From Escherichia phage CMS-2020a, in the sequence record CP054387.1: a DNA stretch of 64,000 nucleotides. One strand, written 5' to 3'. Numbering within the stretch: position 1 is the stretch's first letter; every line of letters begins with the position of its first letter. Of the stretch, positions 30,089-46,784 are shown in pieces. The notes beneath the pieces are model-generated. The model saw nothing but the letters and a program-made list of their open reading frames with translations. It made no database searches and was not told the origin of the DNA. The position numbers were made by a program, and so were the translations under genes.

Positions 30089-30979
30089 TTATGCCGGTAA
30101 AGCAATTTCTAACGGTTTATCCAAAGGTTGTTTGTCGAATGCCAGCAATGGCAGCGTGTCAGGCAGTCGACGACCAAAGTCAGGGTTTCGATACACACCA
30201 TACAACGGAGACGTAAAGCTCAGGTTGTGAATGTCCTTGAGCAGCTTCACAATGCTGGCCTCGTCCACCAGACTGTCGGCAATGTCCTGAATCGTCGTGC
30301 CACGATTCCGCCCAGCTTTTGCCAGGGAACTGTTCTTGTGGTAGTCCGCCACCAGATCACGCAGTGCACGGCGACGACGAGACTCGCTCATTGCGAACAA
30401 CTCTTTGACGATCGCCTCGTTATCACCCGTGTCGGAACGGAAATGGCGCTGGAATACACGCAGTGCACTTTCATAGCTCTTCGGTCGCTCAGGGCGGATG
30501 AACTTAAACCCTGCTTTCATGGCGAAGGGATTGTATTTGCTCATCGAGGACTGGATCTCAATGATTGGCCGGTCATGCATCCTGCTAACCAGGTTAATCA
30601 TTCGATAAGAGACGCCTACGCCACGATACTGAGTATCCACAACTGAGCGACTGATCACCGCAAAGTTGTTATTCACGTACCGACCCCAGTACTGGTTAGC
30701 CACGGTGGTATTAGTGGTTGGTTTCAACTTAGGAAACATGCGGTGGCGAGGTGCCAACAGTAGTTTCGGGTAAGCCATAACCACGACGCCCACCAGACGA
30801 TCATCAAGTTCGCAGCGATAGTAAGTTGGCGCGAAAGGTTTGCCGTCTGTTTTGTAGTGAAGCGACTTAAGAGCGTGCCAGTCCTCTACAGTTCCCTTTG
30901 TAACAGTCATTCGCTCCAGAAAGTCCAGATGACGCGGAAACTCTTCAGGGCGGTAGCGTTTAATGATGATGTCCGTCAT
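30089..30979 (-). CDS. GNAT-fold acetyltransferase-like protein with C-terminal extension
   Basis: 296 aa; VVDTQYRGVGVSYRMINLV fits GNAT motif A (R/Q-x-x-G-x-G); YNPFAMKAGFKFI fits motif B; overlaps ABC ATPase gene by 4 nt. Confidence 0.5.
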   Translation of the reverse strand: MTDIIIKRYRPEEFPRHLDFLERMTVTKGTVEDWHALKSLHYKTDGKPFAPTYYRCELDDRLVGVVVMAYPKLLLAPRHRMFPKLKPTTNTTVANQYWGRYVNNNFAVISRSVVDTQYRGVGVSYRMINLVSRMHDRPIIEIQSSMSKYNPFAMKAGFKFIRPERPKSYESALRVFQRHFRSDTGDNEAIVKELFAMSESRRRRALRDLVADYHKNSSLAKAGRNRGTTIQDIADSLVDEASIVKLLKDIHNLSFTSPLYGVYRNPDFGRRLPDTLPLLAFDKQPLDKPLEIALPA

Positions 30980-31641
30980 AAATGGACCTCATCATGACTA
31001 CCATTGTGATATTCCACCTTCACGCGTTCTTTGTAGTGCTTGGTGATCTGCATATCCGGGCGCAGCGCGTTCTTCAGGTCTTCGTGAGTCGTCGCCACCA
31101 TTACCGTCGCACCAACCTTTCGAGCGGCACGCTGGAGGTTAGATGCCACAACCTGAGCGGTTACACGGTCTAGAACAGCACCGAACTCGTCAGCAGCCCA
31201 CACTTTAGCGCCTGACTCAATCAGTTTGGCAATCTTGAGACGATATTTCTGGCCGTCTGACATTTCAGAAGGCTTGCGAACAAACAGATATGCATCGTTC
31301 AGACCAGCCATAGATAACAACCCAAGCGCATCGCTGGTCGTTTTGCCCAACTGATCGATGACGTTAACCTCATTATCGAAGGTAAAATCATCGATGGAGG
31401 CTACAGACAGCCCTTCATCCTTCATCTGTCGTTGCAACTCGCGCAGCACAACGGATTTGCCGGAACCGGATTGGCCGGTGATGTACACCACATCGCCCTG
31501 CTTCACTTCCAGCTCCAGATTGTCGTAAAGCGTCCACTCTTTTTCGTCCAGGCCAAGCCCGAACGACTCAGCGATTTCCAACGTGCGCGTGGTTTTATTT
31601 ACGCGTGTCTGAAACGATACGTTGATGTTGTATTTGCTCAT
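30976..31641 (-). CDS. ABC-type ATPase (stand-alone nucleotide-binding domain)
   Basis: 221 aa; Walker A GQSGSGKS, signature-like SDGQKYRL, Walker B VWAADEFG, H-loop ATTHE. Confidence 0.8.
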   Translation of the reverse strand: MSKYNINVSFQTRVNKTTRTLEIAESFGLGLDEKEWTLYDNLELEVKQGDVVYITGQSGSGKSVVLRELQRQMKDEGLSVASIDDFTFDNEVNVIDQLGKTTSDALGLLSMAGLNDAYLFVRKPSEMSDGQKYRLKIAKLIESGAKVWAADEFGAVLDRVTAQVVASNLQRAARKVGATVMVATTHEDLKNALRPDMQITKHYKERVKVEYHNGSHDEVHL

Positions 31642-32306
31642 GCAGCCATCTCCCCGGAAGAGATCTTCTCCGCATATGCCACAAATGCGTCTACCCCGCT
31701 TTCTCCCGTCATTTCTTCCATATGGGCAAGCAAATCACCAACAACAATGGCAGAGCCAGCAGGGAGAGTTTTAAAGCCCAATACGTCGACAACACGTACT
31801 TCTTCCGCTGCAACTTCACGACTGATCTCGGTGTGTTCATCCTTCTGTCGTTTAGTTTCTTCGCTAAGATCGATAACTAGCGAGTCGGTGTCCATTTCTT
31901 CTGTCATACTGCCAACGAGAACATTCAACTCACGCTCTTCAAAGCCGAAAACCTCGATATCGTCCAGAACAAGCGACTCAAGCTCTTTCTGTAGCTTAAT
32001 TGCATCGTAATCAATGCTGGCAAGTCGGTTATCTTCAAGGCGCTTCGCACGAACCTCGTCATCACTGAGATCATCGCGAACAATAACCGGTACACGCTCA
32101 AGTCCAGCAAAAATTGCAGCCTCACGGCGGCCGTGGCCAGTAATAATTACGTCGTTCTTATCGACCGTAATTGGCTGGTCAAATCCGCGCTTTTTAATGG
32201 CTGCGGCCAGATCTCTGATCTGCTGTTCATCATGCTTTTTGGCATTCATCTCATAGGGAATAAGATCTGCCGGGTCGCGATATACGATTTCAAACTTTTT
32301 GGTCAT
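31638..32306 (-). CDS. ParB-like nuclease domain protein 1
   Basis: Start at ATG 32306 (AAGGAG upstream, TAATG overlap with upstream stop); IITGHGRREAAIFAGLERVPVIVRD matches ParB/Srx GxxRxxAA box. Confidence 0.7.
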   Translation of the reverse strand: MTKKFEIVYRDPADLIPYEMNAKKHDEQQIRDLAAAIKKRGFDQPITVDKNDVIITGHGRREAAIFAGLERVPVIVRDDLSDDEVRAKRLEDNRLASIDYDAIKLQKELESLVLDDIEVFGFEERELNVLVGSMTEEMDTDSLVIDLSEETKRQKDEHTEISREVAAEEVRVVDVLGFKTLPAGSAIVVGDLLAHMEEMTGESGVDAFVAYAEKISSGEMAA

Positions 32307-33004
32307 TACATACGCTCCTTGTAGTAGTCGACCAGCCACACTAGAGCCTCACCAGCGTTTTCCATTTCATTGCCAGTATTAATTGCCTGGTCTTTGATGA
32401 TGTTTTTTATGGTTTCTGCAACGCGATCTGACGCATCGAAGGTTACTTTGAAGCGCATGGTCTGATGTTCCGCACCGACACGTTCGGTTTTCTCTCGTTT
32501 GTCGGTATCGACAGGCTCATCACTACCACGAGACAACGCCTCCAGTGCTTCAAGGTCGATTGCCGCCTCTTTTGCTAAAACCATCGAGATTTCGTCGTCA
32601 TACGGGGCGATTTCAGACAGTTGATAGTCAAGTTCTGACTGAATTTCTTCAATGAAGCGTTGCAATGCGATTTGGTCGTCTTCACCGTATCGCTCGTTGT
32701 CCACCAGTGACATCTGTTTTGCCACGACATCGCTAATTTTGCCCACAGAAAGCACAGGAACCGTTGAAATTCCTTGCTCAATAGCAGCACGCCAGCGATG
32801 TTCGCCGCCGAGGATTTCAAAAAATCCATCTTCAAGCTCACGAGCCAAAATTGGCTTAAAAAAGCCCAATTTTTCGATAGAACCTTTCAGTTTTTCGAAA
32901 TTCTGCGCACCAACCGAATTGGTGTTCCAGGTATTCGGGCGAAGGTTGGCAACATCAACCTGCAAAATCGTGATTTTTACGTCCATTTTATTGCTACAAT
33001 CCAC
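32306..33004 (-). CDS. ParB-like nuclease domain protein 2
   Basis: 232 aa (start ambiguous, GTG 33004 or ATG 32986); ILGGEHRWRAAIEQGISTVPV is a ParB-type motif. Confidence 0.7.
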   Translation of the reverse strand: MDCSNKMDVKITILQVDVANLRPNTWNTNSVGAQNFEKLKGSIEKLGFFKPILARELEDGFFEILGGEHRWRAAIEQGISTVPVLSVGKISDVVAKQMSLVDNERYGEDDQIALQRFIEEIQSELDYQLSEIAPYDDEISMVLAKEAAIDLEALEALSRGSDEPVDTDKREKTERVGAEHQTMRFKVTFDASDRVAETIKNIIKDQAINTGNEMENAGEALVWLVDYYKERM

Positions 33005-33068: not shown

Positions 33069-34628
33069 ATGACTGTTCGGATTGTATCTAACGCAGTAAA
33101 TGCGCTTATTTCTGGCGCAGATGACAAGGTAAAGCAACTGGTGCAGCAAATGTTGAGCTACGAAGTCGAGGCTGGCGACTGGAAGGGCACAAGCACAATG
33201 TTCAACTGGAGCAAAAACTCGTTCCCTGCTGGCTTTGCCAAGCCCGTGGCGGCTAATTTGAACAAGGCGGGCATCAAATGTGTTCATATCCGCAAAGACA
33301 AAGCCCCGGCGCTTGGTAAACCAAATCCGGCGGTTAACCCATTCCCATACAATCCTGATTATGCGTATCAGGATCAGACTGTGGAAACACTGGTTCGAGA
33401 GGGAATGATGATTGCGCAGATCGCTACTGGTGGCGGGAAATCTAACGTTGCCTGCAAAGCAGCTGCACGTATCGGTCGAATGACATTATTTTTAACAACC
33501 CGCTCTGTTCTGATGTTTCAAATGGCCGAAAACTTCCAGAGATCCATCGACTACCGCGCCGAAAATGGCGAACCGTGGTTAAAGGGCCAAAAGGTTGGAG
33601 TCATTGGCTCGGGTGAGTTCCAGGTATCACGACATATCAACGTCGCTACAGTTCAAACTCTGGCAAGTTTCCTTGAAGAACCACCACGCGATGCAACACC
33701 AGATAAAAAGAGCTACCACCTCAAACGTCGGGAGTTGGTGAAACGCTTCCTTTCAAGTGTGTCTCTGCTTATTCTGGAAGAAGCGCATGAGTCTTCAGGC
33801 TCTAATTTCTATGACATTGCTAGATTATGTGTGAACGCAGACTATCGTCTGGCGCTTACAGCCACGCCGTTCATGAAGGATTCGACGGAAGCCAACATGC
33901 GCCTGATGGCGATGGCCGGGCGAATTGAAATTAAAGTCACAGAAAAGTATCTGATTGATCGAGGCATTCTGGCAAAGCCGTACTTCCTTTATCATAAAGT
34001 TGCCTACAAGCCAGACGAGGCCAGAATCAAGGCCGAACTTGCCAACAAACACCTCAATTTTAGAGTTGGTATGAGCACCGCCTACCAAAAGGCTTATCAG
34101 TTGGGGATCGTGTATAATTTGGGACGTAACGAGGCCATTGTGCGCGAAGCATTGCTCTATAAGCAACATTCTCTCAATTGCATGACTCTGGTTCGTCTTA
34201 AACGCCACGGGCAAATCCTGATGGAGATGATGAAGGAGTCCGGCCTTATAGTTGACTTCATCTATGGGGAATCGAACCAGGCGACAAGGCAAGCAAAGCT
34301 GAACAGTTTAGCGTCTGGCGAAATAGATGTTTTAATAGGCTCGACTATTCTGGATGTCGGTGTTGATGTGCCAAGCGTTGGTGCGGTCATTCTGGCTGGT
34401 GGTGGGAAAGCAGAAGTTGAAATGAGACAGCGTGTCGGTCGTGGCTTACGAGCCAAGAAGAATCAGGCAAACGTGTGTTTTATCACTGATTTCATTGACA
34501 TTAGCAACAAATACCTGTTGTCTCACTCTTATGAGCGAAAACACATCATCGACACCACACCTGGCTTTGCAGAAGGTGTATTGCCTGTTGATGGCGCATT
34601 CGATTTTGGAGTTCTGAAACGAGATTAG
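33069..34628 (+). CDS. SF2 DEAD/DEAH-box-type helicase
   Basis: 519 aa; motif I ATGGGKS, motif II LILEEAHE, motif III LTATP, motif VI RQRVGRGLR; RBS AAGGAAAGAGG upstream. Confidence 0.85.
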   Translation: MTVRIVSNAVNALISGADDKVKQLVQQMLSYEVEAGDWKGTSTMFNWSKNSFPAGFAKPVAANLNKAGIKCVHIRKDKAPALGKPNPAVNPFPYNPDYAYQDQTVETLVREGMMIAQIATGGGKSNVACKAAARIGRMTLFLTTRSVLMFQMAENFQRSIDYRAENGEPWLKGQKVGVIGSGEFQVSRHINVATVQTLASFLEEPPRDATPDKKSYHLKRRELVKRFLSSVSLLILEEAHESSGSNFYDIARLCVNADYRLALTATPFMKDSTEANMRLMAMAGRIEIKVTEKYLIDRGILAKPYFLYHKVAYKPDEARIKAELANKHLNFRVGMSTAYQKAYQLGIVYNLGRNEAIVREALLYKQHSLNCMTLVRLKRHGQILMEMMKESGLIVDFIYGESNQATRQAKLNSLASGEIDVLIGSTILDVGVDVPSVGAVILAGGGKAEVEMRQRVGRGLRAKKNQANVCFITDFIDISNKYLLSHSYERKHIIDTTPGFAEGVLPVDGAFDFGVLKRD

Positions 34629-34630
34629 TT

Positions 34631-34909
34631 ATGAGTGAAAAGAAAACAACTTATTGCCAAGTGGCATTGTCTGATAAGGCCAATGAAAAACTTGGAAAAT
34701 TTCAAATAAAACTCAAAGAGAAAAAAATCAAGATGTCTAAGGCTGAAGTTATCAATGCCATTCTGGAGACGATGACTATGGCTGAATTTGACAAAGTCAC
34801 ATCTGCCGTTGGGGTTTCCGCTAAGACGCGTGAGAAAATCATGCGCATCTATGAAAACTCCAATATGACAAAAAAAGATTTAGAGGAAATACTGAGCAGG
34901 TTGCCGTAA
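34631..34909 (+). CDS. hypothetical small protein
   Basis: 92 aa ORF starting 3 nt after helicase stop, Lys-rich, AT-rich. Confidence 0.5.
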   Translation: MSEKKTTYCQVALSDKANEKLGKFQIKLKEKKIKMSKAEVINAILETMTMAEFDKVTSAVGVSAKTREKIMRIYENSNMTKKDLEEILSRLP

Positions 34910-34941
34910 CATTTCATATTTACCCCCTATCTACTAATTCT

Positions 34942-35541
34942 ATGATGTGCTCACTTGTTAGAAAGAAGCACATCATGAGTTGGTTAAAAGAATTATCATT
35001 TGTTGACACCACTGGCGCTAAGAAAAATCATTCTTTCTGGAAAGTCAGCGATCCTTCTGATTTTCTTGTTGGTGCTAATGCTGCTTTTGAATTGCTTAAC
35101 TTTTATCAACGTTATCCTGAAATGAAACACAGTCCACTCCTGTACAGAATAACAAACGATATGAATAGGTCTGGTTTATTATCAAGTGAGTCAGCGAAAG
35201 GCTTTTTTAGCAAAATAACGCCACACATATCATTCGATGCTGCAAACGAAATTGATTATCTATCCACGAAACCTCAAGAACAATTATCTGTACCACCTGA
35301 GAAAAAAGAAAGACGAATTGCCAGCATTGAAAATATATCGAAAGAGCTTCGCACAACAACGTTGAGGCTGCTGAACTTTCTTACGCTACTGAATTGGATA
35401 GATGATCAAACATTGATTCCATCAACCGAAGCGTTGGATAACAGAGTCCTTCGTCTAAACAAAAAATCGCAATTTGGTTTTGTGTTCACCAAAAAAGGTG
35501 AAGATTTAATCAAAAGAAAATATAGATTATTGAATAATTAA
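34942..35541 (+). CDS. hypothetical protein
   Basis: 199 aa ORF (alternative start at MSWLKEL), AT-rich codon usage, no recognised motif. Confidence 0.5.
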   Translation: MMCSLVRKKHIMSWLKELSFVDTTGAKKNHSFWKVSDPSDFLVGANAAFELLNFYQRYPEMKHSPLLYRITNDMNRSGLLSSESAKGFFSKITPHISFDAANEIDYLSTKPQEQLSVPPEKKERRIASIENISKELRTTTLRLLNFLTLLNWIDDQTLIPSTEALDNRVLRLNKKSQFGFVFTKKGEDLIKRKYRLLNN

Positions 35542-35686
35542 TAGTCTACATGCAGGTGTATGAGAGCACCTGTATGTGACATTCATCACATTTTTTGAAG
35601 TACACACCTCCGGCTGAAAAAATTTCTTGATTGGCTGAACGATATTTGTAGGCTTTTCAATTGATAACTAAGGTCGGATACTGTAG

Positions 35687-36175
35687 ATGAGTATTTCTAT
35701 AAACAAAATAATTAACTCTTTACGACATAAAATATCACATGGAAAAGATGTTCTTTTTAAAGACAAATATTATCTATTCAACTTAGAGCCGTACAAATGT
35801 ACAAAATTTTATATCACTCGCAACCGTAAATATTCAGTTTCAATCACAAAAGACATGAAGAAAATCTCTTCAGAAGAGTACTTCATATCACATATTTATA
35901 TCTACCCATTTAAATTAGAACCATTAAATATAATTCTTCCAACAATAAAAGGGGTTGAACTTGAAGGTTATACTTTAAGCTCTAACTTTAATGATATGGG
36001 TGTACAAAAACCAGGGACAAGGTCATACTACGCCTACAAAGTAAAATGCAATAACTACAACGCACTTAACATGCTAATCAGCAAACTTGAAACGGAGATA
36101 GTCGAAGGAAATCTAAATGACGATCATGAAAAATTAGAACAAATAGAAAGACTTAGAAAGTGTGATGTTAAATAA
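35687..36175 (+). CDS. hypothetical protein
   Basis: 162 aa ORF, AT-rich, no recognised motif. Confidence 0.5.
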   Translation: MSISINKIINSLRHKISHGKDVLFKDKYYLFNLEPYKCTKFYITRNRKYSVSITKDMKKISSEEYFISHIYIYPFKLEPLNIILPTIKGVELEGYTLSSNFNDMGVQKPGTRSYYAYKVKCNNYNALNMLISKLETEIVEGNLNDDHEKLEQIERLRKCDVK

Positions 36176-36790
36176 TTGGATTATCATGATATGAAAATGA
36201 AACTTTCGTTACTCCTTGCTTGCATATACCTCCCGGCGTTTTCCGCCAACGCATTATCAGATTTCGTCTCTGACATGCAAAAAACGTACAGCATGTTTAC
36301 CTCCGAAGACGTAGTAGAATACAAATCACGAGGTCTGAATCAGCCAGTTTGGTTCAGATTCTCAGACAACGCAGAAGAAACAATACTTAATGGAGGAAAA
36401 GAAAGATTACGGTTGCAAATTAACGGGACCGCTGTACCAGAAAACGTTAATGTAAGCTCTGACGAAGCCATGAAGCCATCTGGAATTGTTTTAGAAGTTC
36501 AAGACGGCACACTTTACTGTGATGAAATGGCTACAACAGGTTGCCAAGTAAACATTAGGGTTGGCAATGAAGACCCTATCGTTACTTACGCCAAGGCTGA
36601 AGGGAATACAAGTGGAAAGGTATTGTTTATCGATGAAAATACCTCAAAACGTATCGTTCGTGACATACAGAAAACAGCGAACTCTAAATCCGTCGATAAA
36701 AAAATCTATGTTGAGGTTCCCTTCTTTGTCGTTGGTAACAAAGAATTTAAATTTGGGTTGCTGAAAACACCTCTAAGAGTATCAGAATGA
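36176..36790 (+). CDS. hypothetical secreted/periplasmic protein
   Basis: N-terminus MKMKLSLLLACIYLPAFSANA looks like a Sec signal peptide with AxA-type cleavage region. Confidence 0.55.
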   Translation: MDYHDMKMKLSLLLACIYLPAFSANALSDFVSDMQKTYSMFTSEDVVEYKSRGLNQPVWFRFSDNAEETILNGGKERLRLQINGTAVPENVNVSSDEAMKPSGIVLEVQDGTLYCDEMATTGCQVNIRVGNEDPIVTYAKAEGNTSGKVLFIDENTSKRIVRDIQKTANSKSVDKKIYVEVPFFVVGNKEFKFGLLKTPLRVSE

Positions 36791-37311
36791 GAACATTGGA
36801 CATCACCTACGGCATACCGGCTGAAGTATGGCCGCGAGACTACGAACATGCTGAACGTACCTTGCTCTTCTGGCGGAAAGCTAAATTTCCTGTCAGAGTC
36901 ACACTTGAAGATGGTCAGGTGTTTTGCATGTATGTGCAGGGAACAATGTCTTCCCGCAACAAGCTAGATTTATGTCCAGCACCGCTTGATAATGACAATC
37001 GTATAAGACTCCCACTTGAGCGCATTAGTACAATTGAATCAGGTGTCATTGATGGCATTGCTTACGATTTCAAAGGGAGACTAACAATACATCCTGACTA
37101 TGTAGATAACCAGCCATCACGTCGTGACTTTTTTAAGATATGTCGTCAGGCTTACCAAAACGGCAAATCTATAAGGGTCTACATGGCAGACGGTCGCGAA
37201 ATTGAGGGAACGTCAGATGGTGTTGACGCCTGTCTAGTCACACTTAAGTTGGAGGACGGTAGAAAAATACTTATTTTCTTCGATTGGGTTGAACGAATCC
37301 TTCCGTTCTAA
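36787..37311 (+). CDS. hypothetical protein with two similar beta-rich halves
   Basis: 174 aa; internal duplication-like segments VRVTLEDGQVFCMYVQG and IRVYMADGREIEGTSDG; overlaps upstream stop by 4 nt. Confidence 0.5.
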   Translation: MRTLDITYGIPAEVWPRDYEHAERTLLFWRKAKFPVRVTLEDGQVFCMYVQGTMSSRNKLDLCPAPLDNDNRIRLPLERISTIESGVIDGIAYDFKGRLTIHPDYVDNQPSRRDFFKICRQAYQNGKSIRVYMADGREIEGTSDGVDACLVTLKLEDGRKILIFFDWVERILPF

Positions 37312-37326
37312 TTTCTATAAGGGCAA

Positions 37327-37356
37327 TAACCGGCTAAGTCCGGTTATTATTTTACA
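37327..37356 (+). terminator. rho-independent terminator
   Basis: Hairpin aataaccgg-ctaagt-ccggttatt followed by ATTTTAC after the 36787..37311 gene. Confidence 0.6.
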
Positions 37357-37599
37357 TGTCATTCATTTAATACCTTTTCAATTCTACCCCGTATAAATAT
37401 ATAAGGTCGAAAGCCGGAATCAATTATTTATTTAGGGAACACCTTCGACGATCTCGCTTTTATTTCTAGGACTTTCATCCCTGCAAAAATTTTAAAAAAA
37501 TCGCTTGCAATCTTTTTTCGCATATCGATAATTGAACTCGTCGAAAGCAAACAAGCTAACGACAAATAAATTTAAATATTTACATTAAGGAATAAAATC

Positions 37600-38250
37600 A
37601 TGGCTAACATTATCATTTCTAAAAAGTCTATCATTGAAGCTGCATCTATTGTATCCGACGAGCTGCGCGAAAAAGCAGATCTGGCAACTCAAACATATAA
37701 CGAACATTATAAAAATGGCACGCACACTAAAGCAGACAAAGCAAATATGCAAGCTGCGACCACTAAACTTGCTTACTTCATCAACAACGTCGTAAACGCA
37801 GTAGAAGACGAAAAATTATGCTCTGTTTTCTACTATGCGATTAAAGCAAGCAAACAAGCGCCAGAAGTATTTTTCCGTGATGCAATGACTAATAGTTATT
37901 CACTGGAAAAACTGGTTTATCTGGTTAAATCAATTAAATCTGGTAAATGCGTTTATTCCATCGCTGATATGTCTGGATCTCGTGTATTTGCTTTAATCGA
38001 TATGATTAACGACGAGATCGACACGTTCACCAATGGCGCTGTTTTCGATTTAATGAATGAAGCTAAAAAAGCGTGTGAGATTAAATTGGACGCTGGCTAT
38101 ACTCAAGCCAACCAGTTGATCAATCTTTGCGAACGTCTTGGACTTGTTGAAAAAGTCAAAGGAGCTGGGATCGCAAAAGCTGGTACTCAGCAATATCGCT
38201 TCATTAAAAATGATTTCTACAATTATTTAGCTGACGCTTTCAAAGCGTAA
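37600..38250 (+). CDS. hypothetical protein
   Basis: 216 aa ORF with AT-rich promoter-like region upstream, no recognised motif. Confidence 0.5.
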   Translation: MANIIISKKSIIEAASIVSDELREKADLATQTYNEHYKNGTHTKADKANMQAATTKLAYFINNVVNAVEDEKLCSVFYYAIKASKQAPEVFFRDAMTNSYSLEKLVYLVKSIKSGKCVYSIADMSGSRVFALIDMINDEIDTFTNGAVFDLMNEAKKACEIKLDAGYTQANQLINLCERLGLVEKVKGAGIAKAGTQQYRFIKNDFYNYLADAFKA

Positions 38251-38298
38251 TTAATGGAATTAAGCGCCCATAGTGGGCGCTTTAAAGGAGCTTTAAAG

Positions 38299-38502
38299 AT
38301 GGTCAGCTATGACAAGATCCGCGCGGAATATCGCGCAAAGTATCGCGCTTATAAACTAGAATTAATCGATGATTTGATCGCGCAACGCGACCAATTAAAT
38401 TTTACGTTTTCTGATTTGCTTAACAGCAAGCGAGATTGCAAGCGCAAACGTGAATACTTACGTTTAAGCGCATTAATCGGAAAACTTCAAAATTCTATTT
38501 AA
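38299..38502 (+). CDS. hypothetical small basic protein
   Basis: ATG 38299 with AAAGGAG upstream; ORF-track start 38254 would include the hairpin 38263..38280. Confidence 0.4.
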   Translation: MVSYDKIRAEYRAKYRAYKLELIDDLIAQRDQLNFTFSDLLNSKRDCKRKREYLRLSALIGKLQNSI

Positions 38503-38523
38503 TTTTTTTTAAGGAGCTTAATC

Positions 38524-38754
38524 ATGTTTGTTCTTATCGCTGGCGTTAACGTCCATAATGAATATTATGTTAATCGCATCGCTGGGATCGCTGGTTACGC
38601 TGGGCGCGCAGTCGAGCTTATAGATGAAACGACGCGCAAAATTGACTTATTGAGCGACCAGGAGCGAAAAAAAGCAGACGTGAACGACGCTGATATATTT
38701 TTAATGTTAAAAGCGTTTGTCGAAATGGGATTTAAAATCAGTTTACACAAATAA
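38524..38754 (+). CDS. hypothetical small protein
   Basis: 76 aa, AAGGAG RBS, followed by strong terminator. Confidence 0.45.
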   Translation: MFVLIAGVNVHNEYYVNRIAGIAGYAGRAVELIDETTRKIDLLSDQERKKADVNDADIFLMLKAFVEMGFKISLHK

Positions 38755-38760
38755 AATCGA

Positions 38761-38785
38761 GCGCCCACTATGGGCGCTTTTTTCG
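38761..38785 (+). terminator. rho-independent terminator
   Basis: gcgccca-cta-tgggcgc hairpin followed by TTTTTT; the same palindrome occurs at 38264..38280; a second hairpin plus T-run follows at 38805..38830 (acgcgcc-aatgat-ggcgcgt TTTTTA). Confidence 0.75.
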
Positions 38786-39369
38786 TTTCCAATACACCTA
38801 CCATAACGCGCCAATGATGGCGCGTTTTTATTGTCTTTAACTCACTCCAACAACATAAAAATAAGCGCCAAAATAACGCCATAGACGCGCTTTTATATCC
38901 TTGTCAGTACATACCCATTACTTAACACATTAACGCGCTTAAAACACGTTATATTGCGCTATAGAGTATGGTTAATCATTGGCTTTTAGTCTTGCTATGT
39001 GATCCGCGTTTATTTGTCGGCGCGGATCGGCATTTTGTTTTGTTCCGTATCCGCTCGCGTATTATGTGCGCGTGATTTTTCACATAATCACACCACTTAA
39101 TCACGTATGCGATTACGCTACGAAAGAAATCTGGATGTCTCAGGCGACGAAAGTCATCATAATTTTCCCCGCTCACCTGTCCGACAACCGCTGGTTGGAT
39201 TCCACCAGCTTCCCGATGTTTTTTCTACATAAAGGCGAATGCAGCCGTTTCCCGAAAAAATCCTGGCCGTTCCCCGTCGGTTCATGAATACGTTCCTCGC
39301 CGTTTCTGAAAATTTCCCTGCGGCATCTGGTGGCTATAGAGAAAGGGCCGTTACTGGCCCTCTTCTCAG

Positions 39370-42369: not shown

Positions 42370-43020
42370 CTCTTCATCCTCACTTCGTTTCTATAACGTC
42401 TAAATATGCTGTTTACTTGTTGGTGTTATTATCGCAATAAGATAAAGGCGAAAAAGGATTTTATGTCGGGAAAGCCAGGCTGGGCAGTGAATATCCGGGA
42501 ACGACACGAGAGCCAGTATTTACGATATTCTGCTCTACGCGCGCCGCGGGGCTGGTGGGTAGAATAATCCTCTCCCCGAAAACCTACTGAAATCGATTGT
42601 GACCCGCTGGCTGTCTGGCACAATTACGCTGTATCTGGCATTCAGAGGGAATCCAGCGGTAAGCAAGTCAGCCTGCACGTGAGCGCCTCTCTTCTTCCCG
42701 CACATTACAGGTGGGTAGCTGCAACTCTCTCGCTATACCGGTACGCCGCCGTTCCTGAACCGGCATCGAGCCTTTTCCCGAAATCCACACAGGCAACTCG
42801 ACCGTTTCCCTGAAAATCCCCAGCCGTTTCTGTAGCGTATGCAACCTTTTCTCTGTATGGACCGAAGGCTGACCGTAGGGGTGTTACGGGGGGTGATGGT
42901 AAGATGTTGAATAAATACGAAAAAGGAGGCGACACACCTCCTTCCCTCTCCACTTATACATACCTGGCTTCTTCGCTATACATGTTGTGTTTTATCTGTC
43001 TCAACCTCTCTATAGGCGTT

Positions 43021-43760
43021 AATGCTCACTCCTTCCAGAATGTTCTATACGGCGACTATTTCTGTTGGTGAATTGGGTGTGTTGTTTTCTCTGTCGGTGT
43101 ATGTGGTTTCGTTAGTTTTGCGGTGGTTCTTCTATGGGGGTGTTCTCGTCGTTTTGGTGATTGTTCTTCTCCGTGTATGGAGTAATGGCAGGTGGGCGAT
43201 TGCTTTCGTTATTGTGTTTGAGTTGTTTGTCTGGAGTGTGTGAAGGCTTTTGTAGTTATTCGTGTATTGGGTAATGGCGTTTCCCGTGATTGTTATGTTT
43301 CGTGTCTTTTGGGATTGAGAGAAACCTTGCGGTTACAGGCTTCGTTAGGGTTTCAGCGGTTCAGGTGTTTCTTCGCTGTTTGGGTAATGGCGTGTCGTGG
43401 GTATCGCGCGTATGAATGTTTTCGGATTGCCTGTGAAAGTTAGGTTGGTTGTCCGGTAGCCTGGGGAGAAGAGGTGGGTCTTTTCGGTAGCCTGCCATAA
43501 AGAGGTTGGTTGTTTTGGGTAATGGCATATGTGTTATTTGGTTGTTTTGTTATGCCTGAAAATAAGTTGTTTATATGGTTGTGTAACGCAACGGGAGCGA
43601 TTTTGAGCGTGTGTTTTTGTTGGTAGTGTGTTGAGTCGTCTGTGGTGAAATTTGGACGCTGTGGCGCTATCTGCTGCGTAGAATTACGGGTATAAGAAGT
43701 GATGTGTGATAACGTCAATTTTTTAGACCAAATCGGGAGAAAGCGTTGATGTTTCGTTGA
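43021..43760 (+). other. strand-asymmetric GT-rich non-coding tract with short repeats
   Basis: Plus strand strongly enriched in G and T; GGGTAATGGC at 43269, 43382, 43517 and a variant at 43180; only low-complexity ORFs. Confidence 0.5.
43454..43517. repeat. iteron-like tandem direct repeats (2 units of ~32 bp)
   Basis: ccggtagcctggggagaagaggtgggtctttt / cggtagcctgccataaagaggttggttgtttt; same family as 39939..40027. Confidence 0.55.
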
Positions 43761-44593: not shown

Positions 44594-46627
44594 TTACTTA
44601 ACCTGGTGGCCAGGTTTAGCACCAGCATCCGGGCTTAACAGGAAGATATCTTTCCCGCCAGGACCGGCAGCCATCACCATGCCTTCAGAGATACCGAAGC
44701 GCATTTTACGTGGTGCCAGGTTAGCCACCATAATGGTGTGACGACCAATCAGTGCCTGTGGATCTGGATAAGCGGAACGGATGCCTGAGAAGACATTACG
44801 CTTTTCACCACCGAGATCCAGCGTCAGGCGAAGCAGTTTGTCAGAACCTTCGACAAACTCCGCGTTTTCAATCAGCGCCACACGCAGGTCAACTTTGGCG
44901 AAGTCGTCAAAGGTGATGGTTTCCTGAATCGGTTCGTCAGCCAGTGGGCCAGTTACCGGTGCAGCTGTGGCTTTCACTTCTTCTTTGGATGCTTCCACCA
45001 GTGCTTCCACCTGTTTCATATCGATACGGTTATACAGTGCCTTGAACGGATTCACTTTATGGCCCAGAAGCGGTTGCTGGATACCATCCCAGGTCAGTTC
45101 TGTATTCAGGAATGCTTCTGCACGTTCAGTCAGTTTCGGCAGTACCGGTTTCAGGTACGTCATCAGCACGCGGAACAGGTTAATGCCCATAGAGCAAATC
45201 GCCTGCAGATCTGCATCGCGACCTTCCTGCTTCGCCACCACCCACGGAGCCTGTTCATCGACATAGCGATTAGCCAGGTCAGCCAATGCCATGATTTCAC
45301 GGATAGCTTTACCAAATTCGCGGCTTTCCCATGCTTCGCCAATCACTTCAGCGGCATCAGTAAAGGTTTTGTACAGTTGCGGGTCAGCCAGTTCGCTTGT
45401 CAGCACGCCGTCAAAACGCTTGTTGATAAAGCCTGCATTACGGGAGGCCAGGTTAACCACTTTGTTCACGATATCGGCATTCACGCGCTGAACGAAATCT
45501 TCCAGGTTGAGATCGATATCATCAATGCGCGAAGAGAGTTTCGCAGTGTAGTAGTAACGCAGGCTGTCAGCGTCAAAATGATTCAGCCAGGTGCTGGCTT
45601 TAATAAAGGTGCCGCGAGACTTGGACATCTTCGCGCCGTTCACCGTCACATAGCCGTGAACAAACAGGTTGGTCGGCTTGCGGAAGTTGCTGCCTTCCAG
45701 CATGGCAGGCCAGAACAGACTGTGGAAGTAAACGATATCTTTGCCGATGAAGTGGTACAGCTCGGCGGTGGAGTCTTTCTTCCAGTATTCGTCGAAGCTT
45801 ACGCTGTCGCCGCGCTTGTCGCACAGATTCTTGAAAGAACCCATGTAGCCAATCGGCGCGTCCAGCCAGACGTAGAAATATTTGCCCGGCGCGTTCGGAA
45901 TTTCAAAACCGAAGTAAGGGGCGTCGCGGGAGATATCCCACTGTTGCAGGCCAGATTCAAACCACTCCTGCATTTTATTTGCCACCTGCTCCTGCAACGC
46001 ACCGCTGCGGGTCCATGCCTGCAACATTTCGCTGAAAGAGGGCAGATCAAAGAAGAAGTGTTCAGAATCACGCATTACCGGCGTAGCGCCAGAAACCACC
46101 GATTTCGGCTCGATCAGTTCAGTCGGGCTGTAGGTCGCGCCGCAGACTTCGCAGTTATCGCCGTATTGATCCGGGGATTTACATTTCGGGCAGGTGCCTT
46201 TTACAAAACGGTCCGGCAGGAACATGCATTTTTCCGGATCGTACAGCTGTGAGATGGTGCGGTTTTTAATAAAACCGTTTTCTTTCAGGCGAGAGTAGAT
46301 AAGCTCGGACAACTGACGGTTCTCTTCGCTGTGCGTCGAGTGATAGTTGTCATAGCTGATGTTAAAGCCTGCGAAATCAGTCTGATGTTCCTGACTCATT
46401 TCGCCAATCATCTGTTCCGGTGTGATACCAAGCTGCTGTGCTTTCAGCATGATTGGCGTACCGTGGGCATCGTCGGCACAGATGAAATTAACCTCGTGGC
46501 CGCGCATTCGCTGGTAACGAACCCAGACATCAGCCTGGATGTGCTCCAGCATATGGCCGAGGTGGATTGAGCCGTTAGCGTACGGCAGCGCGCACGTCAC
46601 CAGAATTTTCTTCGCGACTTGGGTCAT
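44594..46627 (-). CDS. metG: methionine--tRNA ligase
   Basis: Translation from internal Met ([48 protein letters not shown]...) matches enterobacterial MetRS as I recall it, including HLGH and KMSKS motifs and C-terminal tRNA-binding domain; ORF-track N-terminal extension rejected. Confidence 0.97.
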
Positions 46628-46784
46628 AGTAGGCATTACTTCTTTGTAGTGAAAAGGGGCTTGATAGTAACAAAATGGCCTTATGTCTGCCATGTGATAA
46701 CAGCATTTCTCATAAATGATTAAATGTCGTAGCTGGAGTACACTACAAGGCGACAATTGCGCAAATTAAAATAAAGGAGACGGG

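Follow-up and report, generated by a model that had tools for sequence, protein, structure and literature searches.

A probable conserved accessory and regulatory arm with a FljA-family protein and a variable gene slot in an SSU5-like phage-plasmid

The 64-kb stretch of DNA analysed here (the window) comes from Escherichia phage CMS-2020a (sequence record CP054387.1) and contains, between positions 33069 and 38830, a block of plus-strand genes comprising a superfamily 2 (SF2) helicase gene and eight further open reading frames (ORFs), as laid out in a preliminary description made from the sequence alone (Table 1). The neighbours of the block are structural genes of the phage (portal, terminase) and a divergent pair of ParB-like genes. 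Plasmid p09EL50 of E. coli O104:H4 2009EL-2050 contains the block at 100% identity, 561 plasmids match it in megablast, and the phage records which match it are those of Salmonella phage SSU5, the Escherichia phages Cyrano (= pLF82) and PhiR41_1, and CMS-2020a. The source element is an SSU5-like phage-plasmid. The genes fall into two putative units, the first (unit 1, 33069-37311) with the helicase, p92, the three cargo genes p199, p162 and p204 and a gene for a FljA-family protein of 174 amino acids (aa), and the second (unit 2, 37600-38754) with p216, p67 and p76.

The portion 34631-38754 has a guanine-cytosine (GC) content of 37.4%, versus 45.9% elsewhere in the window, and the greater AT-richness of the block given in the preliminary description is borne out by these values. 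It is the lowest-GC 4.1-kb segment of the 64 kb, approximately four standard deviations under the other segments (non-overlapping 4.1-kb segments; mean 46.2%, standard deviation 2.1, minimum 42.2%), and the helicase gene, at 47.8% GC, lies outside this AT-rich stretch. The orientation of the block on the plus strand of an otherwise minus-strand genome is likewise evident, the ORFs of at least 100 aa covering 45.4 kb where they lie on the minus strand but 8.1 kb where they lie on the plus strand, and the block contributing most of the latter. A scan for terminator-like hairpins yields 14 sites in the region where 5.4 are expected; the hairpin terminators described at 37327, 38761 and 38805 are all recovered within a few nucleotides (nt) of these positions (Table 1), and that of unit 1 is kept in the E. 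coli relatives. The gap between the helicase and p92 genes, described as 3 nt, is really 2 nt. An Rfam scan of the whole window gives zero matches, a tRNA search finds none, and iterons or an origin, sought in the two intergenic regions, are represented by just short two-copy repeats.

The same region was compared in 13 elements: six from E. coli, SSU5, a second Salmonella element, pMT1 of Yersinia pestis, three from Klebsiella and one from Enterobacter. A single gene order is common to all 13 elements and five genera, with two ParB genes diverging from the helicase gene, which is followed by p92, a variable slot, the FljA-like gene, p216 and p67/p76. At least one of p67 and p76 occurs after p216 in every element except the most divergent Klebsiella element, which has neither and in which the ORF at the p92 position is too diverged for tblastn. 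Identity across genera is 90-99% for the helicase, 83-100% for p216 and 65-99% for the 174-aa protein, and in the divergent Klebsiella clade it is 72%, 49% and 37%, respectively. SSU5 (SSU5_119-124), Cyrano/pLF82 (CYRAN_112-118) and pMT1 have the gene order and flanks of the window, with the helicase 92-98%, p216 84-96% and the FljA-like protein 78-87% identical; for Cyrano, the values are 98% (helicase), 100% (p92), 97% (p199), 87% (FljA-like) and 96% (p216). All three differ from the window in the slot, where SSU5 and pMT1 have a single 140-aa lipoprotein gene and Cyrano has p199 and a 266-aa lipoprotein gene on the other strand in place of p199, p162 and p204, and the window has p67 and p76 together, unlike any of the three.

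The GC content of the plus-strand block is 7-10 points under that of the flanks in all six relatives in which it was measured, of which four carry no window cargo gene and Cyrano keeps p199. Since the same dip occurs in relatives without the window cargo, the composition is inherited by the arm and is not a sign of recent insertion. The preliminary description had taken the block for a compositionally foreign insertion with the layout of a defence or superinfection-exclusion island. The insertion does not stand, as the same position and GC dip recur in related elements and a survey of homolog neighbourhoods places the helicase, FljA-like gene and p216 as a core at this position in 13 relatives; AT-richness and strand inversion beside a helicase are too little to call an island where the dip is inherited across genera. 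The block is therefore probably a conserved plus-strand accessory and regulatory arm of an SSU5-like phage-plasmid, organised in two units and containing a slot for morons, and not an island. A coherent new multi-gene system in the block is unlikely.

Table 1. Genes and non-coding features of the plus-strand block, with positions in the window.
Feature	Position	Strand	Longest ORF	Remarks
SF2 helicase, 519 aa	33069-34628	+		Core gene of SSU5-like phage-plasmids
p92, small Lys-rich core protein (phrog_1466)	34631-34909	+	34631-34909	2 nt after helicase stop
p199/188, cargo, orphan family phrog_13473	34975-35541	+	34942-35541	Start at 34975 inferred from homolog alignment
p162, cargo, rarest and most AT-rich orphan (29.4% GC)	35687-36175	+	35687-36175	
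p204, cargo, Sec-exported soluble protein (phrog_18942)	36191-36790	+	36176-36790	Longest ORF from TTG 36176; start likely ATG 36191 or 36197
FljA-family protein, 174 aa, predicted tandem Sm/Hfq-like domains	36787-37311	+	36787-37311	Highly polymorphic core gene
Terminator hairpin of unit 1	37325-37348	+		9-bp stem AATAACCGG/CCGGTTATT, then ATTTTACATG
Three non-coding blocks	37396-37475	.		Fully or almost fully conserved across 12 elements, the clade with proteins of 37-72% identity included
Block one	37396-37406			AATATATAAGG
Block two	37427-37445			TTTATTTAGG[G/C]AACACCTT
Block three	37458-37475			TTT[T/A]TTTCTA[G/A]GA[C/G]TTT
Sigma-70-like promoter of unit 2	37505-37532	+		TTGCAA-16 nt-GATAAT, from consensus scan
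Small hairpin in predicted p216 leader	37540-37563	+		GTCGAAAGC-AAACAA-GCTAACGAC
p216, core protein limited to SSU5-like elements	37600-38250	+	37600-38250	
p67, small coiled-coil-like protein	38299-38502	+	38254-38502 (82 aa)	phrog_6145 at 1e-46 over residues 16-82 only
p76, small protein (phrog_1585)	38524-38754	+	38524-38754	
Two strong intrinsic terminators ending unit 2	38759-38779, 38805-38826	+		Each a 9-bp stem with 6 GC pairs, then a T-run

Transcription of the arm can be followed in the RNA-seq data of the Cyrano lysogen of E. coli LF82. In lysogeny broth (LB), the normalised values are 46 for the helicase, 114 for p92, 9 for p199, 29 for the slot lipoprotein, 18 for the FljA-like gene, 6 for p216 and 5 for p76, with a median of ~9.5 (PMC9928086 S1 Table), placing the helicase at ~5 times, the slot lipoprotein at ~3 times, the FljA-like gene at ~2 times and p199 at ~1 times the Cyrano background. 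CYRAN_117, identical to p92, is 12-fold over the element background in LB (PMC9928086 Table 1) and is the most transcribed gene of the block in lysogens. These LB values indicate that unit 1 is active in the resident state and unit 2 silent, and for a near-identical relative they show transcription of unit 1 genes during lysogeny. In macrophages, the log2 values at 6 h rise from 4.2 to 8.0 for the FljA-like gene and from 4.8 to 8.7 for the slot lipoprotein, and according to the authors Cyrano is not induced there (PMC9928086).

Of all genes of the block, the helicase is the best conserved (ratio of nonsynonymous to synonymous substitution rates, dN/dS, 0.01-0.07) and is accordingly a component of the backbone, not a marker of cargo. 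It matches the Pfam families ResIII (1.9e-14), DEAD (6.9e-14) and Helicase_C (2.5e-12) as well as the phrog_16 DNA helicase (1e-92). Its matches in PADLOC and NCBIfam, to PbeA (4e-22), dnd_restrict_1 (1.1e-15), type IV restriction and DruE, run via the common SF2 core; the NCBIfam scores are an order of magnitude under the cut-offs (57.6 bits versus 600 for TIGR04095, Dnd restriction), and beyond these weak helicase likenesses NCBIfam returns nothing. PbeA, Dnd, type IV restriction, Druantia DruE and DISARM DrmA have this generic core in common with the window helicase, but these defence systems include partner genes that are absent here, and the window helicase is a backbone gene. The p92 protein is found in 12 of the 13 relatives at 51-100% identity, and a PDB profile search with it gives nothing significant. 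A by-eye resemblance of p92 to ribbon-helix-helix (RHH) regulators (TYCQVAL..., SKAEVINAILE) was considered and is not supported, given an hhalign E value of 0.34 against a small, hand-made RHH alignment and the lack of any RHH Pfam match at E <=1. A P22 immI-like Arc/Mnt-antirepressor module composed of p92 and p199 was likewise reduced to a lead on the E value of 0.34 and the want of Pfam support, which is also missing for a by-eye resemblance of the p199 C-terminus to KilA-C/ANT.

Variation within the block is confined to the 1.9-kb slot at 34910-36790 (29-40% GC), with p92, the FljA-like gene and p216 being backbone, and variable content between conserved flanks, as expected of a hotspot, is found for this interval only. 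Slot DNA is partly present in 95 of the 561 related plasmids and complete in 22. The matches form discrete modules (34910-35655 with p199 and 36190-36790 with p204), and pairwise blastn places the breakpoints at gene borders (34913, 35655, 36190, 36799, 37310-37314 and 38293-38507). At the protein level, relatives occur in 178 plasmids for p199, 65 for p204 and 23 for p162; these plasmids are non-mobilizable and ~105-125 kb in size, with a few larger ones of up to 218 kb. Of 5426 complete E. coli genomes, 132 contain cargo DNA, on a plasmid in all 132 and on the chromosome in none, and other contexts (islands, prophages, chromosomes) were not found, the protein-level matches being confined to plasmids. 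Cyrano and many other elements carry p199 alone, pCTX carries p204 alone, and pNT1F34 carries p199 and p204 without p162. The three are orphan genes private to the SSU5-like element family which assort singly.

That p199, p162 and p204 form one three-gene functional system inherited together is held to be highly improbable. The trio is present in this arrangement in 22 plasmids as well as in 36 complete E. coli genomes, it recurs at 41-53% protein identity in a Salmonella element, and at the megablast level p162 (23 plasmids) is found only inside the complete slot; the solitary and paired occurrences just listed, the unequal sizes of the three families, the recombination breakpoints between the genes and the failure to find enzymatic or sensor domains in the three proteins (Pfam, PADLOC) all argue in the opposite direction.

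The p199 protein exists as two allele groups, of >=95% and ~41% identity. An exhaustive HMMER search of 1.84 billion representative proteins identifies 9 relatives, none with a Pfam domain, and p199 itself is without a Pfam match and gives nothing significant in a PDB profile search. The p162 protein has 3 clusters among 5.8 billion proteins and is weakly similar to a 180-aa slot protein (E 1e-4), which is in turn weakly similar (E 3e-4) to the N-terminal, non-catalytic half of a 377-aa HNH endonuclease (Pfam HNH, 2.9e-6) found in the slot of a relative. This chain of weak homology, the lowest GC content of the block and the very narrow distribution would agree with p162 being a remnant of a free-standing HNH homing endonuclease which has lost its nuclease domain and has no function for the element. 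Such an origin is nevertheless quite doubtful, given that the direct comparison of p162 with the HNH protein is not significant (E 4.2), that a Pfam search finds no HNH motif in p162, and that the ORF is intact, 95-100% conserved in 22 plasmids and 53-58% identical in Salmonella and Citrobacter elements, which suggests selection.

The Sec signal peptide attributed to the ORF at 36176-36790 in the preliminary description is upheld by the FSANA cleavage region of p204, which is conserved in homologs of 52% identity. Export signals and lipoboxes were read by eye. The p204 signal peptide reads MKMKLSLLLACIYLPAFSANA and is followed by LSD; a homolog at 52% identity begins with MTRLAILVTTYILSFSANA, followed by VSD, and its signal is without a cysteine. 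The conserved FSANA cleavage region and the cysteine-free signal of the homolog indicate that p204 is of the signal peptidase I type, soluble and not lipidated. The mature part contains two cysteines (YCDEMATTGC), the alleles form groups of >=90% and ~52% identity, and searches of Pfam, PADLOC and PDB return nothing for p204.

An exported protein or lipoprotein is encoded in the slot of 12 of the 13 elements, from at least four unrelated families, namely p204, the SSU5-type lipoprotein, a 266-aa lipoprotein and a 118-aa secreted protein. The 140-aa lipoprotein (lipoboxes ITAC, LSAC) is found in SSU5, pMT1 and the Enterobacter element, and a related 145-aa lipoprotein (VAGC) is encoded on the opposite strand in one Klebsiella element. 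The 266-aa lipoprotein (LTGC), also on the opposite strand, occurs in Cyrano and another E. coli element, and the 118-aa protein, with a signal peptidase I signal, in another Klebsiella element. Two E. coli elements additionally encode a small secreted protein directly 3' of the 174-aa gene. The 377-aa HNH endonuclease is located in the slot of the E. coli plasmid NZ_CP027369.1 (3114-4247; locus L009); it has weak matches to type IV restriction models, and its candidate roles are homing and type IV-like restriction.

Small exported proteins and lipoproteins such as T5 Llp, phi80/N15 Cor and lambda Bor are known as morons or superinfection-exclusion envelope proteins. The slot genes resemble them in being small, exported or lipoprotein-encoding, AT-rich and variable between conserved genes, the slot lipoprotein of Cyrano is expressed, and p204 shares with the Llp/Cor-type proteins the property of being exported. 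In contrast to the Llp/Cor type, p204 has a signal peptidase I signal and no lipobox, and the slot proteins are without sequence or profile similarity to the named exclusion proteins (Pfam, PADLOC, PDB). As the slot favours exported proteins, an exclusion or surface role of p204 is plausible, though no homology supports it. PADLOC-DB 2.0 was run on all nine block proteins and nine slot proteins of relatives. Aside from the helicase, seven of the eight block proteins have 0 matches and p199 has one chance-level match to SspC (E 0.006, 12 bits), and the slot proteins of the relatives yield HNH matches only.

These data also bear on the slot as a hotspot of defence or superinfection exclusion, in which p204 would mask or modify a receptor or block phage DNA, and p199 and p162 would each be a further defence or anti-defence factor acting singly. 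The slot is genuinely variable, with its breakpoints at gene borders, and is AT-rich, an exported protein of one or another family is present in all but one of the elements, one relative has an HNH endonuclease with weak type IV restriction matches, and the Cyrano slot lipoprotein is ~3-fold over background and reaches log2 9 in cell-culture medium and macrophages. This role is nonetheless considered unlikely: PADLOC is blank for p199 (its chance-level match apart), p162, p204 and, with the exception of the HNH motif, the slot proteins of the relatives; there is no Pfam or PDB similarity to known exclusion proteins; the cargo is never found outside the plasmid family, unlike typical island-hopping defence cargo; and Cyrano p199 is at background in lysogens. 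Of the island in the preliminary description, what stands is a true variable slot at 34910-36790; no defence hidden Markov model matches it, and the rest of the block is backbone. The resistance-gene hotspot of SSU5-like elements is reported in the literature from a different locus, near PhoH/ligase.

The protein encoded directly after the slot belongs to the FljA family, and the earlier statement that none of the eight proteins shows a motif is overturned by its match to the complete PF03614 profile (E 8.8e-80; 266.9 bits versus a cut-off of 24; residues 5-171 on positions 1-170 of 170). It has the same length as, and is 34% identical (E 2e-32) to, the flagellin-linked FljA of an E. coli chromosome locus (L012), in which the canonical invertase-flagellin-FljA order is confirmed, with a Hin-like invertase, and it has the motifs YG..AE.WPR.Y, R.DFF.IC and DWV.RI in common with that protein. 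By its full-length PF03614 match it belongs to one family with FljA of Salmonella fljBA and the homologs of the latter in E. coli and on pBSSB1. While canonical FljA is encoded in an invertase-flagellin-fljA operon, the window gene follows a helicase gene, p92 and a cargo slot on a phage-plasmid, and unlike canonical FljA the window type is a core gene of the Klebsiella and Y. pestis elements, with highly variable alleles that are exchanged as a cassette. Neither a flagellin nor an invertase gene occurs in or beside the block, nor beside the FljA-like gene in the 13 elements, and a literature search yielded no work tying SSU5/pHCM2-type elements to FljA.

The AlphaFold model of the FljA-like protein (monomer; 31 family members; predicted local distance difference test, pLDDT, 82) predicts a helix and five strands twice over, at residues 20-85 and 112-173. 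The N-terminal helix and the five-stranded, strongly bent antiparallel sheet of the Sm/Hfq-like fold are thus seen in the predicted structure. The tandem Sm-like domains in the model would account for the internal duplication claimed for this ORF, which is clear in the predicted structure and marginal in the sequence (BLASTP E 0.31; hhalign E 0.02 over 16 columns), and a PDB sequence search gives nothing significant. The protein differs from Hfq and the Sm/LSm proteins in having two Sm-like domains per chain, not one domain forming a ring of six or seven, and in being just 14-23% identical to them in sequence. The predicted tandem Sm-like fold fits an RNA-binding post-transcriptional repressor.

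The FljA-like gene is found in 831 plasmid records, 341 from Klebsiella and 62 from Yersinia, and is full length in 821 of the 831. Its dN/dS of 0.05-0.16, comparisons with Klebsiella elements included, reflects purifying selection. Among E. coli elements with 96-99% identity in both helicase and p216, the FljA-like protein is 69-99% identical (versus L003 and L008-L011), with allele boundaries exactly at 36799 and 37310. Old FljA-like alleles are thus exchanged as a cassette, as is typical of determinants of specificity. The E. coli chromosome CP125919.1 (385158-397682; L015) also has a FljA-like gene, 47% identical, not in a flagellin locus but in an apparently decayed SSU5-like context with 92-aa and 76-aa neighbours and without helicase and p216 being called as genes, which suggests occasional chromosomal integration of SSU5-like phage-plasmids.

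FljA-type proteins prevent translation of fliC mRNA at the post-transcriptional level (PMC2652032). In a host-directed lysogenic conversion, the FljA-like protein would repress the fliC mRNA of the host, lower flagellin, for example in macrophages, and remodel the surface together with the exported protein. The full-length PF03614 membership, the motifs in common with flagellin-linked FljA and the documented activity of the family on fliC mRNA speak for such a role, as do the constant neighbourhood of exported or lipoprotein genes and the ~14-fold rise of the Cyrano ortholog in macrophages without prophage induction. Flagellin repression is, on balance, possible but doubtful. The flagellin/invertase partner is absent, identity to canonical FljA is just 34%, and alleles differing by up to 31% in one E. 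coli backbone are unexpected with a conserved fliC leader. K. pneumoniae is without flagella and Y. pestis is non-motile, yet 341 Klebsiella and 62 Y. pestis records carry an intact gene under purifying selection. That the carriers LF82, S. Typhi CT18 and O104:H4 are flagellated also speaks against this role. The lack of a flagellin/invertase partner, the purifying selection in the Klebsiella and Y. pestis records and the cassette alleles make it probable that the FljA-like protein does not usually target flagellin mRNA, or not that mRNA alone.

Unit 2 starts with p216, which has 102 homolog clusters, no Pfam domain and, among homologs with a long contig, nearly always a location on contigs of ~100-115 kb. 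Its model (pLDDT 85.7; predicted template modelling score, pTM, 0.74) combines long helices in the N-terminal part with a winged helix at the C-terminus, and by this predicted fold p216 is most likely a DNA-binding protein; a fold search gives just generic winged-helix and helical-bundle matches and a PDB sequence search nothing significant. The two small genes that follow are distributed differently, p67 being found in SSU5 and the Klebsiella and Enterobacter elements and absent from Cyrano and pMT1, and p76 being found in Cyrano and pMT1 (51% identity) and absent from SSU5 and Klebsiella. A 75-aa paralog of p76 lies directly upstream of p76, at the p67 position, in two E. coli elements (L010 6319-6819, L011 6046-6546). 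The 67-aa protein is named 'MIT family metal ion transporter (CorA)' in SSU5 (SSU5_119) and in PHROGs (phrog_6145); p67 has no CorA Pfam match and is too short for a transporter, and the label is almost certainly a propagated annotation error.

The 288-nt spacer before p216 is in parts more conserved than the adjoining genes. The three non-coding blocks (Table 1) are probably operators for a highly conserved binding protein, and the 19-mer TTTATTTAGGGAACACCTT occurs once in the 64-kb window. The -10 region of the predicted unit 2 promoter, TCGATAAT, is invariant in 12 elements. The small hairpin downstream of it has 6 pairs, 3 of them with compensatory changes, and a weak energy of -2.0 kcal/mol (RNAalifold); GTCG/CGAC is exchanged for ATCG/CGAT, and the stem is completely re-paired in pNT1F34. 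This is suggestive of a candidate RNA operator, and together the spacer elements look like the operators of a tightly regulated promoter. Since unit 2 is silent in lysogens, it probably has a regulated, non-lysogenic function.

A further reading is self-targeting, in which FljA-family tandem-Sm proteins would be more than factors of flagellin phase variation: in SSU5-type phage-plasmids the protein would be a core, allele-diverse repressor of translation acting at the RNA level that recognises one of the element's own leaders, a candidate being the p216 leader hairpin 230 nt downstream, and helps hold the lysogeny-silent operon off. It would then constitute a protein-based 'RNA immunity' layer, its alleles shuffled as cassettes like those of lambdoid repressors. 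This proposal is rated as quite improbable.

In the favoured reading of the block as an accessory and regulatory arm, unit 1 would combine the core helicase, core p92 and core FljA-family protein with singly swapped slot genes. The FljA-like protein would bind an mRNA leader and block its translation, as FljA does on fliC mRNA. The slot genes would be independent morons, and the exported slot protein would act at the envelope of the cell, its candidate roles being superinfection exclusion and interaction with the host. Unit 2 would express p216, p67 and p76 from its conserved promoter. Several points weigh against this reading. The order p199-p162-p204 is kept in the Salmonella element mentioned above, and a Klebsiella element has a p199-like, a p162-like and an unrelated exported protein in this order, both of which hint at linkage between slot genes. 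The HNH nuclease in the slot of one relative indicates that nuclease-type functions can lodge there. For p92, p199, p162, p204, p67 and p76 there is no fold or family match in the searches run. The RNA-seq data come from a relative that carries p199 and a different lipoprotein and is without p162 and p204. RNA binding by the FljA-like protein is inferred from the predicted fold and family membership. Finally, the argument from Klebsiella and Y. pestis leans on outside knowledge of hosts without functional flagella, and SSU5-like elements may move between motile and non-motile hosts.

Several other features of the window deserve mention. Divergent from the helicase, a conserved minus-strand cluster at 30089-33004 encodes two ParB/Srx-like proteins, an ABC-type ATPase and a further protein of 296 aa, for which the Cyrano annotation gives an ATPase-acetyltransferase fusion, and is present in all relatives examined. 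On the 3' side of the block, 615 bp of non-coding DNA (38755-39369) with at least five terminator-like hairpins on both strands and without an Rfam match may hold a small RNA or regulatory region. An ORF-poor region of ~550 bp at 43020-43560 is strongly G+T-rich on the plus strand (GC skew +0.36, AT skew -0.35) and contains at least five dispersed copies of a GGGTAATGGC-containing motif with no tandem array; it could be an origin, iteron-like region or packaging site of the phage-plasmid. A 720-aa ORF on the minus strand (44594-46756) is annotated as methionine-tRNA ligase (metG) on the identical p09EL50, an aminoacyl-tRNA synthetase being unusual on a phage-plasmid.

Phage-plasmids of the SSU5 type include pHCM2 of S. 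Typhi and pMT1 of Y. pestis, some of them carry resistance genes, and relatives are found in ~2-4% of complete E. coli genomes and number in the hundreds among Klebsiella plasmids. The gene arm that follows the helicase belongs to their backbone and includes a FljA-family protein predicted to have two Hfq-like domains, as well as a slot dedicated to exported proteins. Should the FljA-like protein have a target other than flagellin mRNA, a wider role would emerge for a family that Salmonella phase variation defined 40 years ago; should it repress flagellin, common plasmids of pathogens would modulate a major ligand of innate immunity.

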